Source: a virus (Duplodnaviria; Caudoviricetes). From it: a DNA stretch of 40,722 bases. Position numbers and translations under genes: made by a program. The notes under the pieces were generated by a model. The model saw only the letters and a list, made by a program, of their open reading frames with translations. It searched no databases and was not told where the DNA came from. Shown piece by piece: positions 4,242-40,722 of this stretch. How positions within the stretch are numbered: the stretch's first letter is position 1; each line of letters starts with the position of its first letter. The stretch is taken from IMG/VR virus record IMGVR_UViG_3300032320_001415, positions 1 through 40,722 of that record, one strand, 5' to 3'.

Positions 4242-4666
4242 CTCGACCGCGTGCAGGATATGTCGGATTCACGCGGACGCCGACCTCGACGGCGGCGTCT
4301 GGAATCTGGACGCTACGAGAGGCGGAGGCGAGCAAGCGTCAGGCAGCGTGGCCAGACACGATTCTCCCCGTTGCGGCTACGCCAGCATTTTCAGTGAGCG
4401 GCGCTGGTACTGCCGCCGCAAACGGCACGTACTGCGAGAGCGGCACTCTCAACGGGCGACCGCGATATACCAAGGGCAGCTACACAATAGAGTATACGTC
4501 CGATTGGATGATCGACGGCGAGGGCAACGGGCCGAACTGGCTGATCCGGTTTGGCAGCACTGATTTGTATTACGCATCCGTGACAGCCGCGACCCCGCCG
4601 CTCAGTGGCTGGGGAGTCTATTTGGGCGGCTCGCCCGCACCAACGCTGTCCTCCACCACCTGCTAG
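4238..4666 (+). CDS. Putative virion appendage protein
   Basis: Coupled ORF; N-terminal ASGIWTL..WP motif followed by a G/T/S/Y-rich beta domain. Confidence 0.55.
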   Translation: MTRPRAGYVGFTRTPTSTAASGIWTLREAEASKRQAAWPDTILPVAATPAFSVSGAGTAAANGTYCESGTLNGRPRYTKGSYTIEYTSDWMIDGEGNGPNWLIRFGSTDLYYASVTAATPPLSGWGVYLGGSPAPTLSSTTC

Positions 4667-4689
4667 ACAGTATCGGAGAGGAGATAGAG

Positions 4690-5013
4690 ATGTCGTCCTA
4701 CGATCAGCTGCCGGGGCAGCTCAACCTCTCCGTGCGTGGCGGCGACCGCCTCTCGGCCGAGATCGACTTCAATCCGATTTCGCTCACGGGTTTCACGATG
4801 GCGGCGACAATCTCGTCCCTCGTCGGCGGCAACACGCTCGCCTCAATGACGACGACGCTGACGGACGCAGCAGCCGGAAAGGTGAATGTCTCACTGACGG
4901 GCACGCAGACCGTCGACCTGCCGCGTGGGACGTACAGATGGGATCTGACGGCGACCGACGCCGCCAGCGTGCGGCGTAGCTACCTCACAGGCTTCGTCGA
5001 GGTCACTCGCTGA
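4690..5013 (+). CDS. Ig-like fibre-adaptor protein; paralog of 25144..25524
   Basis: RBS GAGGAG; shares Y.QLP..L, AG.VNVSL...QT, YRW and R.YL.G.V motifs with 25144..25524. Confidence 0.7.
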   Translation: MSSYDQLPGQLNLSVRGGDRLSAEIDFNPISLTGFTMAATISSLVGGNTLASMTTTLTDAAAGKVNVSLTGTQTVDLPRGTYRWDLTATDAASVRRSYLTGFVEVTR

Positions 5014-37339: not shown

Positions 37340-37831
37340 ATGGATTGGGACATGAACATCGACGAGGACTTCCCGCAGGACGTCCACAAGCAGATGCCCG
37401 AGGAGCGTGAGATCGTGCCGGTCGGCACGCATCTGGCGACGATCAAGCGTGCCGAGGAAGGGCCGAATCAGTGGAAGACGAGCGACACGAATCCCGACGG
37501 CATCTGCCTCAAGGTGCGGCTGGCCATCGGCAACCACAAGTTCATCTTCCACGACCTGCCCAAGCACGTGCCGTGGCTGGCGAAGCAGCTCGCAGACGCT
37601 CTCGGCATCCAGCCGCAGGGCAACACGCTGCGTCTCGTGCCGGCTGACGTCGAGGGCCGCGAGGTCCGCGTCGAGGTTGAGCACTACACGAGCAAGGCGG
37701 GCCGCGTGTCGGCGGTCGTGAAGCGGTACTTGCCGGCTGCCTCCGCATCGTCGGTGCCGCCGAAGACGAAGCCACAGCCTCGCGTTCGCGAGGAGCTGAA
37801 GGTGGCTGGCTCCGATGACATCCCCTTTTGA
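37340..37831 (+). CDS. Phage single-stranded DNA-binding protein-like
   Basis: Follows the Sak4-like gene; acidic C-terminal tail DDIPF. Confidence 0.7.
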   Translation: MDWDMNIDEDFPQDVHKQMPEEREIVPVGTHLATIKRAEEGPNQWKTSDTNPDGICLKVRLAIGNHKFIFHDLPKHVPWLAKQLADALGIQPQGNTLRLVPADVEGREVRVEVEHYTSKAGRVSAVVKRYLPAASASSVPPKTKPQPRVREELKVAGSDDIPF

Positions 37832-37854
37832 AAGGCGAGATAGGTAGGTGCCAG

Positions 37855-38082
37855 ATGCGTGAAGAACCAGTGAACATCGATGCGAACGTGATCGCCGAGT
37901 ACCTCGAGCGGCAGGCCAGGCCCAACATGGCGGCGTTCATCCGTGCGCTGGACTCACGGTCGCGTGATGCGTACCGCCGAGAAGAGTCGCTGAAGGAAAA
38001 GATCGCCGCCCTGGCGAAGCGGCTGCACGAGTACGAGCCGCCACCGAATCGGCAGCCTGACGTTGCCTGGACAGGAGACTGA
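37855..38082 (+). CDS. Small hypothetical protein
   Basis: RBS-like AGGTG; helical sequence. Confidence 0.55.
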   Translation: MREEPVNIDANVIAEYLERQARPNMAAFIRALDSRSRDAYRREESLKEKIAALAKRLHEYEPPPNRQPDVAWTGD

Positions 38083-38236
38083 CATTCGCCGAGGCACGCC
38101 ATTGCCCGAGCGGCTGCATCACGGGCCGCATTGGTCGCCAAGGGAATGGTGGCGAGTAACCGCCCAGCCGCAACCCGACTCCACGGGTGATGCGACCGCG
38201 CCGGGCGTAACCCGGCAAATACACACGGAGGTGAAT

Positions 38237-38551
38237 GTGGCACTCACGACAACGCAGGACGCGATGGATTCGCTGCCGCTCTTTGCTGCGGCAAGGCGAA
38301 CAGATCCGCAGACGTCGCACCAGGCGGCACGCTCGGCGCGATCGTTCGCGGGCGAGCATCACCAGGCGATCCTCGAGGCGCTGGCGCACGGACCTGCGGG
38401 AGCCAGCGGCATCGCGGCGCGGTGCGGGCTGCTGGCGCATCAGGTCAACAAGCGGATCGGCGAGCTTGCACGGGCTGGCAGGATCGTTGAGACGGGCAGG
38501 ACGGTGCGTAGTGCCAGTGGACGGGGCGAGAGGGAGTGGAGGTGTGCGTGA
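38237..38551 (+). CDS. Winged-helix DNA-binding protein
   Basis: ARRTDPQTSHQAA; ILEAL...IA...KRIGEL...G.I..TG...SGR..W. Confidence 0.7.
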   Translation: MALTTTQDAMDSLPLFAAARRTDPQTSHQAARSARSFAGEHHQAILEALAHGPAGASGIAARCGLLAHQVNKRIGELARAGRIVETGRTVRSASGRGEREWRCA

Positions 38552-38955
38552 GACCGCATGAAATCGAGTACTCGCGATACATCGCGAGCCACCGCTGGGC
38601 TTGCAAGCGCGACGCCCGAAAGGAAATCGACGGCCATAGGTGCCAGACGTGTATGCACGACGGCACGCTGTGGAGGCTTGAGGTTCACCACAAGACATAT
38701 GAACGATTCACGGACGAGGACGTTGATCGCGACTTGATCACCCTCTGCGTCCAGTGTCACGAAGCCGTGACGTGTGTAATCCGGTCCCGTCGGTATGACG
38801 GACAGCCGGTGCAAGTGTGTTTTGTTTCGGATGGTTCCATTTCACGAAAGGATGTGTCATATGGCATGGACGACATTGACCTACAAGATCACAGGCGACG
38901 CCCCGCTGATCATGCACAACGGGGATCTCGCAAACCCGTTGAGCAAGGCCGCTAA
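38548..38955 (+). CDS. HNH endonuclease
   Basis: Y..YI.S..W; RCQTC; LEVHHKTY; DLITLCVQCH. Confidence 0.85.
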   Translation: MRPHEIEYSRYIASHRWACKRDARKEIDGHRCQTCMHDGTLWRLEVHHKTYERFTDEDVDRDLITLCVQCHEAVTCVIRSRRYDGQPVQVCFVSDGSISRKDVSYGMDDIDLQDHRRRPADHAQRGSRKPVEQGR

Positions 38956-39487
38956 GGCGCTGAAGCAGGTGACTTCCAAGAAGAAAAAGACGGATGCCGA
39001 TTTCGAGCGAATGGCTGAGATTGAGTTCAAGGCCGGACTTTACATCGACGAAGATCGCGGCCCTGTGATCCCTGGCGAGAACATTGAGGCCACGCTCTAC
39101 AACGCTGCCAAGATCACGAAGGAAGGCAAGATCGCCAAGTCGGCCTGTTTCGTTCCGAATGCGGCGGTGCTCCAGTACGACGGCCCGCGCGACGCAGACG
39201 GGCTGTGGAACGAAGAGCGGTTCCGCAACTGCGTCGGCGTGAAGGTTGGCATGAGCCGCGTGATGCGGACTCGTCCGATCTTTCAGGATTGGTCTGCGAT
39301 CTTGGAGGTCGAGTTTGAGGACTCGGTCGTGAACGAAGAGCAGGTCGATCGCTGGGTGCATGCGGCCGGCACGCAGGTCGGTCTCTGCGATTGGCGGCCC
39401 AGGTGCGGACGGTTCACCGCCGAGAAGGTGGCCAACACGACGCCGAAGAAGCGGAAGGCGGCACCGGAGGCTATCGGCGCGGAGTGA
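38861..39487 (+). CDS. Stand-alone Cas7/RAMP-like RNA-binding protein
   Basis: RAMP-like layout: ITGDAPLIMH (beta1), PVIPGENI, RTRPIF..W, Gly-rich loop AG..VGLCDWRP..GRF; RBS AAAGGA. Confidence 0.75.
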   Translation: MAWTTLTYKITGDAPLIMHNGDLANPLSKAAKALKQVTSKKKKTDADFERMAEIEFKAGLYIDEDRGPVIPGENIEATLYNAAKITKEGKIAKSACFVPNAAVLQYDGPRDADGLWNEERFRNCVGVKVGMSRVMRTRPIFQDWSAILEVEFEDSVVNEEQVDRWVHAAGTQVGLCDWRPRCGRFTAEKVANTTPKKRKAAPEAIGAE

Positions 39488-40430
39488 TCATAACGAACTG
39501 AGGCGTGGTCGCGTCTGGTCAGTTGAGTTCTGTTCGGGTCGGGCACGGCGGGTTGGTGCTGGGCCGTGCATGTCAACCAACCACTCTCGTGATAGGCACG
39601 GAAGCATCTTCGACGGTGCGGAGTGGGGTCGGTTTAGGTCCGGTCTGGCGAGTTGTGTCAGGGTCTGTCCAGTTGAGTCTGTGCCGGTCAAGGCAACCTC
39701 TCTCATGGTCGGCATGATGCGTCTTCGATGGCGCGGAGAGGGATGCACTTAGTTAATGCTGGTTCATGTCGGTCAAGGGATGTTCGGTCCTGTTCCGGTG
39801 GGTTCTTTTTTGGCAAGTTGGCAATGTCAGGCAAATCATGGGAACCACCTGCACGGTCGGCGTGGTCGCGGCTTCGATGCTGCGAGGTGGGATGTGCTGC
39901 GGTTCGTTCAGGAACGGCACGGCAGTGCAAGGTGTGATTTTTTCCGCTACGGCGAGTCGTGGAACCACCATCGTGTTGGCACGGAGGCCGATCGACGCGG
40001 CCGTGGTGGGATGAACTAAGGCTCGTTTGGCTGAGGCTGTGCAATGCTCGGCAGTGTTAGTTGCGGCAGTAAAGGTCTGGTTATGGATGGTCTTAACTTG
40101 GCAAACAAACCACACCCGTGCAGGCACGGTTCCCGATCGACGCGGGAGGTGTGGGATGGATCGTGTTTCGGCAGCACATGTTTCGTCAGGCCGAGCCGTG
40201 TCATGTTCCGGCAGGACTTGGAACCAAGCTCGTGCAGGCACGGGGCCGGATCAACGCCGGCGGCTTGGGATCGCGGCTAGCTGGTGTTTGTTACGGCACT
40301 GCAAGGCGGTGCGTGGCATGGCTTGGTCGGGTTTGAACCGCCATCACGGTCGGCGTGGTGAGGCTTCGACGCCTCGTGGCGGGATGCGCACATGGATGGA
40401 GCGGCTGGTTGCCGTGCCATGCGAGGATTT
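39488..40430 (+). ncRNA. Non-coding guide-like array: seven structured tRNA-like repeats alternating with 5-nt-periodic GGY+NN tracts
   Basis: Repeats start at 39579, 39695, 39843, 39963, 40108, 40222 and 40336 with co-varying stems; pentamer period in between; no credible ORF. Confidence 0.8.
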
Positions 40431-40433
40431 CAA

Positions 40434-40722
40434 ATGAGTTCTTGGTTGAAAATGCGACATGACCTTGCAGACGATCCAGCGGTAATCCGACTGGCATCGC
40501 TTTGCGGGCTTGAGGAGGATGCCGTCATCGGCAAGCTCTTCCGGCTCTGGTCGTGGGCTGATCGTCACACGCGAGACGGGAATGTCGAAGGTGTCGATCT
40601 GGCCTGGGTTGATCGTTTGGCTCGGCGTGATGGGTACGGTGCCGCCCTTGTCAGGGTGGGCTGGCTTGTCGAAACAGGCGAGGGGCTGAGTTTCCCGCGT
40701 TTCGACAGGCATTGCAGCGACA
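40434..40722 (+). CDS. Phage replication initiator/organizer N-terminus (runs off window; not in ORF track)
   Basis: RBS GAGGA; MSSWLKMRHDLADDPAVIRLA...VIGKLFRLWSWAD...VGWL...FPRFDRH. Confidence 0.75.
   Translation, partial: MSSWLKMRHDLADDPAVIRLASLCGLEEDAVIGKLFRLWSWADRHTRDGNVEGVDLAWVDRLARRDGYGAALVRVGWLVETGEGLSFPRFDRHCSD

Follow-up and report, generated by a model that had tools for sequence, protein, structure and literature searches.

The window analysed here, 40,722 bases long, spans an entire virus record with a completeness rating of 100%; a Pfam scan of it identifies terminase, portal, protease, capsid and tape-measure genes. Apart from the possible source run, its three best-matching runs are lake-water metagenomes, with contigs that lie on the stretch; no RNA run was present among the matching runs listed. 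In a search for the host, all terminase matches in cultured phages fell below 60% identity, and an Atlas search returned viral capsid clusters only.

The features of interest lie on the plus strand near the end of the window. A small winged-helix/HTH gene (38237..38551) upstream of the module matches Pfam DprA_WH (E 2.6e-4) and HTH_20, both under the curated cut-off, and tblastn against the close loci finds its homologues in the closest relatives only. The intergenic stretch 5' of this gene (38236 back to 38083) can form several hairpins; its fold z-score of -1.53 is not significant alone. There follows an HNH-domain gene (38548..38955; Pfam HNH, E 4.2e-5, and PHROG HNH families), whose start codon at 38548 is inferred, the ORF tool having placed the start at 38536. 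Its frame overlaps the first 95 nt (38861-38955) of vipr (38861..39487), which encodes a 208-residue RAMP protein. Overlaps of 86-164 nt between the two genes recur among the relatives compared, and an HNH homologue is located directly upstream of vipr in many loci. The guide array begins at 39488 and runs into a worn tract (40383..40433), the position at which a last guide, with no element after it, survives in several relatives; the array's downstream border is a replication initiation gene (40434..40722; phrog_2509, E 1.5e-36) that is cut by the record end. The array contains one promoter-like site, which is within chance (shuffle mean 0.4), and no plus-strand terminator was found in it. 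The array is presumably transcribed together with the HNH-vipr operon.

The RAMP protein is related to Vipr of Escherichia phage SUSP1 (PDB 36pp; phmmer E 4.6e-32 over residues 6-190), and its predicted structure (pLDDT 89.6) has a fold that matches CRISPR RAMP chains such as Csm3. VIPR, first described in 2026, is a CRISPR-related DNA-silencing system in which guides direct Vipr to DNA through dinucleotides that pair, with a one-base skip (10.64898/2026.04.26.720920). Described arrays have a pseudoknot tail, guides that overlap by 1 nt (staggered), hammerhead ribozymes, or a single guide. The SUSP1 guide retains its structured tail (10.64898/2026.04.26.720920), a point against the explanation favoured below. 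The window resembles the SUSP1 system in its Vipr homologue, adjacent accessory gene, phage location and pentamer guide array. HNH domains are named among the Vap proteins and described guides lack a self-match (10.64898/2026.04.26.720920); by its domain and position, the HNH gene at 38548..38955 is likely to be a vap accessory gene. Gordonia phage Trine (L244) also has a vipr gene, and the short intergenic stretches inspected there contain no pentamer tract.

Seven guides follow vipr, each a tract of pentamers made up of a fixed triplet and a variable dinucleotide, the dinucleotides being near uniform. Guide 1 (39488..39580) has 16 pentamers, guide 2 (39627..39696) 14, guide 4 (39891..39964) 14, guide 5 (40010..40109) 17, and guide 7 (40269..40337) 13. 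Guide 3 (39742..39844) contains 19 units with a register slip and has 11 units in common with the same-slot guide of the related locus L002, and guide 6 (40155..40223) contains 13 pentamers, sharing 10 units with L006 and nine with a longer guide of L087. Guides 1-7 contain 79 in-phase G[GT]Y/TGY triplets, compared with a mean of 30.7 and a maximum of 42 in 2000 shuffles. The array therefore consists of tandem GGY/NN or related pentamers, as in VIPR, with a relaxed consensus: 80 of 104 triplets are G[GT]Y or TGY, and strict GGY accounts for only 35 of 104, a difference from described VIPR arrays. The preliminary description had placed the array in a CRISPR frame, which gives way to a VIPR system with pentamer guides on the evidence of the vipr homologue and the in-phase triplets. 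A CRISPR array was rejected since the repeated units are 64% alike, the spacers are pentamer tracts, and the Pfam and PHROG scans (28 proteins each, a subset of the ORFs) found no cas family. A ribozyme-interspersed VIPR array was likewise set aside, as no ribozyme family matched in 37800-40722 up to E 10.

Possible targets were sought by applying the 1-nt skip rule. Three scans of viral contigs gave no exact match, either for guide 1 (22 and 20 fixed letters) or for a guide of L087. In 401 genomes from the phylum to which L180 belongs, chosen as a guess at the host, guide matches numbered five and control matches seven. Against 1.14 Mb of fetched DNA, guides of the close clade reached best scores of at most 82%, with a control for guide 1 only: its best match covers 25 of 32 letters, and none of 30 shuffles exceeded 23. 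Guide 1 decodes to a string that reads like an H-x-x-R motif, and we take both this string and the best-matched gene to belong to the tyrosine recombinase family. The L087 guide at 2000-2118 decodes to a Walker A motif, presumably of the ParA type. Guide 6 of the window (40155-40223) looks like a shortened form of that L087 guide. As decoded, the guide 1 and L087 strings would both fit silencing of competing mobile elements. Self-targeting is not apparent, the best own-genome scores of eight tracts lying within the shuffled range.

Each of guides 1-7 is followed by a short structured element: A (39581..39626), B (39697..39741), C (39845..39890), D (39965..40009), E (40110..40154), F (40224..40268) and G (40338..40382), all on the plus strand. 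By the common plan, a closing stem encloses two hairpins: the first has 4 bp and a loop of 4-5 nt whose last letters are GG, the second has 5 bp and a 6-7 nt loop, and a link of 2-3 nt lies between them. The existence of these seven units, and all of the stem pairs quoted for them in the preliminary description, were confirmed, with standard pairs in 112 of 112 stem cells. A 7-bp outer stem and a 5-bp third stem, claimed for every unit, are found in six of them (A, B, D, E, F and G; the 7-nt loop of D begins with A). Unit C has a G·G at position 7 and a T stem one pair longer, giving 6+6, so that the total helix is still 12 bp. The GATG said usually to follow the units is present after five of the seven, with GGTC after unit 1 and GATC after unit 6. 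More broadly, AA precedes 61 of 69 units and GAT follows most, and an A-1/G73 apposition ends the helix in 60 of 69.

The units were put to several checks. A loose descriptor run on both strands of the window gives 11 matches, which are the seven units and four scattered sites, three with a mismatch and one with a 3-bp small stem. A covariance model, proposed earlier as a check, recovers six of the seven units and nothing else in the window. In a set of 18 units drawn from the window and relatives, 97.6% of the 288 cells are paired and two-sided changes occur at 10 of the 16 pairs; the covariation score was reached by none of 500 shuffles, with kinship uncorrected. Folded singly, the three-way structure is the minimum-energy structure for six of seven units and ties in the seventh, with z-scores of -1.75 to -2.49. 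Folding of the whole array as one 946-nt RNA at equilibrium gives a different outcome: units 1 and 2 hold (P >0.9), unit 5 has P 0.49, and the other four are near 0. Short folding spans or blocked guides rescue some units, and units 4, 6, 7 or 3 are weak in some settings. This loss of most units in the whole-array fold counts against the explanation favoured below.

To determine how widely such elements occur, pentamer tracts near vipr were collected from the window and the 242 best-matching loci (the best ≤80 Vipr relatives per search). A coaxial helix capped by a T loop follows 121 of 727 tracts, compared with 1 of 3635 in a shuffled-segment control; most of the VIPR loci fetched therefore lack a mini-tRNA element, 606 of the 727 tracts being without one. 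All 51 flanked matches in fetched loci below 60% identity share the strand of vipr. Elements with a D hairpin occur only in the window's clade (≥69% identity), where the covariance model gives 62 matches in 44 sources, all in arrays of that clade. Two other Vipr clades have a form that combines an open loop of about 11 nt with a T loop of the canonical 7 nt. One of these clades is actinobacterial; in the other, a small tetraloop hairpin often follows the element. The cultured phages MakoManhole (Gordonia) and LittleE (Mycobacterium smegmatis) carry the open-loop form, as read by eye.

The position of the elements bears on their role. In relatives of the window, often no element follows the last guide, which passes directly into a hairpin or the next gene, and in MakoManhole and L188 an element stands before the first guide; the elements thus act as separators. 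The punctuation role first proposed for the units is accordingly supported, with pentamer guides as the items separated. Separators of this mini-tRNA kind are a further difference from described VIPR arrays, and our verdict is that the seven units are separators in a phage VIPR array, a new array architecture of a known system. The term "tRNA" occurs nowhere in the main and supplementary text of 10.64898/2026.04.26.720920, and term searches do not find it in two follow-up preprints, nor "tRNA-like" in a further preprint that maps VIPR arrays. In literature whose coverage excludes most subscription journals, no account of tRNA-like separators in VIPR arrays or of an A18·G55 pair was found. Other separators were seen in passing. 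At ~1735-1765 of L022 a long hairpin closes the last guide; its loop resembles a T loop, and it may be a minihelix version of the element. Alphaproteobacterial and other loci (L024 3640-3720, L049, L036 3620-3670) have other structured separators between guides, those of L024 and L036 giving no Rfam match at gathering score.

The preliminary description interpreted the units as tRNA mimics without an anticodon arm, and this interpretation is supported: the window units have an acceptor stem stacked on a T arm of about 12 bp in all (7+5 or 6+6), and elbow covariation among relatives matches that of real tRNAs. In tRNA, D-loop G18 and G19 contact T-loop U55 and C56 (PMC10424219). Among 43 distinct open-loop elements from distant VIPR loci, 30 have G18·U55, 13 have A18·G55 and none is mixed, and C56 and A58 are invariant (43/43); rows from L173 and L199 (2 of 45), whose T loop lacks an initial U, are left out of this count. 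The Fisher P of 2.7e-11 for the 18·55 switch ignores kinship, and the rule that picks position 18 ignores the T loop and was written after the data had been seen. A 12-bp count was imposed by the scanner in the 18·55 scan; the distant elements have 11, 12 or 13 bp in 12, 14 and 17 of the 43 cases. As a control, viral tRNAs were chosen by G55 with position 18 left free; A18 is present in 71 of 77 distinct sequences. The A18·G55 state is found in each of the three Vipr clades, and both states coexist in L149, L170 and L007, so it is not a single inherited event. No two-sided change of G19·C56 was seen in any element.

Within the window's own clade, 48 of 52 distinct units have G18 G19/U55 C56, one has A18·G55, one has U56, and two are mixed (A18·U55 and U18·U55). 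T loops start with U in 33 of the 52 and with A in 18, and many are 6 nt long. The elbow signal in this clade is weak, and with two mixed units against one switched unit, support for the elbow there is by analogy. In the mascRNA crystal structure, a small D hairpin joined without a linker and bearing GG at its loop end forms the elbow (PMC11693755). Taken together, tRNA mimicry by the elements is well supported by these sequence comparisons, and we consider the elbow fold very probably real. The units are not tRNA genes: a cloverleaf with an anticodon arm is absent and only 2-3 nt lie between the D and T hairpins. ARAGORN reports no tRNA or tmRNA gene in the window and four calls in 34 related loci, two overlapping an element plus guide (L170, L219) and two in a guide tract. 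Rfam gives no tRNA match and nothing significant in 37800-40722, and no match at gathering score in 20 related loci.

A structured separator could also act without tRNA enzymes, with the elbow ending the Vipr filament and blocking exonucleases while general RNases make the cuts. An elbow also stabilises RNA, many of the fetched VIPR loci use plain hairpins or other separators, and the loops of the window's clade depart from the tRNA consensus. A plain stop, however, does not need an 11-13 bp helix, invariant C56 and A58 or a tRNA-type 18·55 switch, nor does it need the conserved single-stranded AA and GAT flanks, and we regard this explanation as improbable.

Cutting of the elements by host RNase P and/or RNase Z, as the preliminary description had proposed for the release of single guides, is judged likely; cutting by both enzymes is less likely than not. 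Bacterial RNase P prefers G+1/U-1. Window units begin with C after AA, which counts against RNase P. Of the 26 short open-loop elements (11-12 bp, mostly actinobacterial), 22 start with G and 19 have R-C-G-C immediately after them, which is closer to an RNase P substrate. On the 3' side, base 74 is A in 63 of 69 units and C in one, CCA follows none, and of 60 cases scored, 46 have the next guide's register beginning at base 73. In B. subtilis, precursors lacking CCA are taken by RNase Z, which long 5' extensions slow; B. subtilis RNase P cuts CCA-less precursors too, acting before RNase Z if the 5' extension is long (PMC1874595). An RNase P-then-RNase Z order would fit the window units because their 5' extension is a whole guide.

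The same end sequences can be read in another way, in which the element stays on the preceding guide as a structured 3' tail, like the SUSP1 pseudoknot, and only its 3' side is cut, by RNase Z or by another endonuclease with trimming; the tail would then fix the start of the Vipr filament. SUSP1-clade vrRNAs end in a conserved structured tail (10.64898/2026.04.26.720920), and cryo-EM intermediates resolve from the 3' pseudoknot. The near absence of C at base 74, the start of the next guide's register at base 73 and the poor RNase P start offered by C+1 also agree with a retained tail. Yet in several arrays the final guide has no element after it, some arrays open with an element that no guide precedes, the element also occurs without guides, and the slowing of B. 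subtilis RNase Z by long 5' extensions (PMC1874595) would hinder a 3' cut alone. A retained tail is an unlikely account of the elements, if less so than a purely physical stop.

Comparison between phages shows what is conserved. The claim that the units keep structure and not sequence is correct within the array, where mean identity is 0.64, but not between phages: 57 units of 11 relatives average 93% identity (0.93) to the best window unit, and the order A to G is kept, with slots lost or doubled in some relatives. Nor is divergence between repeats a requirement, since L013 and L014 carry near-identical copies; the idea that divergence conceals the array from CRISPR finders is biologically meaningless. 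A stronger pattern emerges between phages, where the unit of a slot is conserved while the guides change. Only 13 of 2487 between-phage guide pairs share ≥7 units, and 12 of these 13 have the same downstream element, as do 329 pairs overall; shared descent alone would also give such co-sharing. At places where the window has guides, contigs from the three lake-water runs have different sequence linking one element to another. Stem changes within slots keep pairing in 33 of 38 cases. Such conservation from phage to phage could let the unit of a slot act as a recombination address for guide swapping. In L007 a protein gene (4297-4694) is inserted in the array after slot C, and guides resume behind it.

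The element is also found outside VIPR arrays. A pattern scan gave at least 119 loci, of which at least 14 fold as the element, at least four at vipr and at least 10 elsewhere (L384, L421, L423, L429, L462, L463, L465, L488, L490 and L491; six of these 10 have only 300-base flanks). Among the solo loci listed, the element ends a conserved structured intergenic RNA of ~135 nt without pentamers, which lies after an SSB-like gene in most loci, the downstream gene varying. A 12-mer at the 5' end of this RNA can pair with the 3' strand of the element, and the competing 12-bp helix is favoured by 8.6-14.6 kcal/mol in six of six solo loci folded, like a two-state switch. Rfam gave no match in six solo loci. 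One of four solo records searched also carries, ~1 kb from the element, a distantly related vipr-like gene that has a pentamer tract of its own. In L493 (1386-3522) and L384, from phages with the solo element, a distant vipr-like gene (25% identity) is accompanied by another gene and by a long pentamer tract that lacks mini-tRNAs. Since the element ends an RNA outside VIPR, it is a portable module, and a reader supplied by the host is favoured over a role as a handle for Vipr alone.

The solo RNAs could instead mean that the element began as a phage regulatory switch or protein-binding motif and, once copied into the array, acts there mainly as a recombination address. The competing helix of the solo copies and the conservation of slots during guide turnover are consistent with such an origin. 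It leaves unexplained, however, why two other Vipr clades have tRNA-type elements whose T loops are canonical, and a recombination address needs no structure, yet stem changes within slots largely preserve pairing; we consider this origin highly improbable. A bolder version of the tRNA-enzyme explanation, that the element is a portable mini-tRNA mark for host RNase P/Z, used in three Vipr clades, made switchable in the solo RNA and doubling as an address for guide swaps, is a speculative possibility and would give VIPR a means of renewing its guides without Cas1-Cas2.

Overall, the explanation that we favour as probable is that mini-tRNAs separate the VIPR guides and that host tRNA enzymes are likely to cut at their ends. 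Each unit would fold into a tRNA elbow, RNase P would cut at its 5' foot and RNase Z then after base 73, an order modelled on mascRNA and plant t-elements. Vipr would coat each freed guide of 13-19 pentamers, the complex would silence the DNA of competing mobile elements by the 1-nt skip rule, and guides would be exchanged by recombination at the elements.

Comparable RNAs are known from other settings. mascRNA and menRNA (of MALAT1 and MEN-beta) are small tRNA mimics within longer RNAs whose D hairpin joins the acceptor stem without a linker and has two G at the loop end (PMC11693755, PMC4919922). They are cut out by RNase P and then RNase Z, a step only predicted for the window units, and they are vertebrate, single-copy RNAs with a short equivalent of the anticodon arm and a canonical 7-nt T loop, whereas the window units belong to a bacterial virus, number seven and have no anticodon arm. 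Plant mitochondrial t-elements mimic the acceptor/T arm, lack the anticodon arm and flag the ends of transcripts to RNase P and/or RNase Z; these are mRNA ends in organelles with protein-only RNase P, unlike the punctuation of a guide array (PMC5499578). The P4 CI RNA and P1/P7 C4 RNA are phage regulatory RNAs matured by host RNase P (PMC5499578). In engineered tRNA-gRNA arrays for multiplex CRISPR, tRNA-shaped spacers release several guides from one transcript; those arrays are man-made and use whole tRNAs, and the window array would be a natural counterpart with minimal mimics.

What is new here is the elbow covariation with a tRNA control, the slot-specific conservation, the use of a solo copy in another RNA and the presence of the element in cultured carrier phages. 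The element, at 45 nt, would represent a natural tRNA mimic of very small size whose elbow has evolutionary support, and would provide a compact spacer for multi-guide constructs in bacteria. The VIPR texts consulted mention hammerhead ribozymes and staggered layouts; for other arrays they give no processing enzyme, and they describe no route of guide renewal. A tRNA-mimic separator would supply an answer on processing for a wide set of loci, and the slot-specific separators suggest one on guide renewal.
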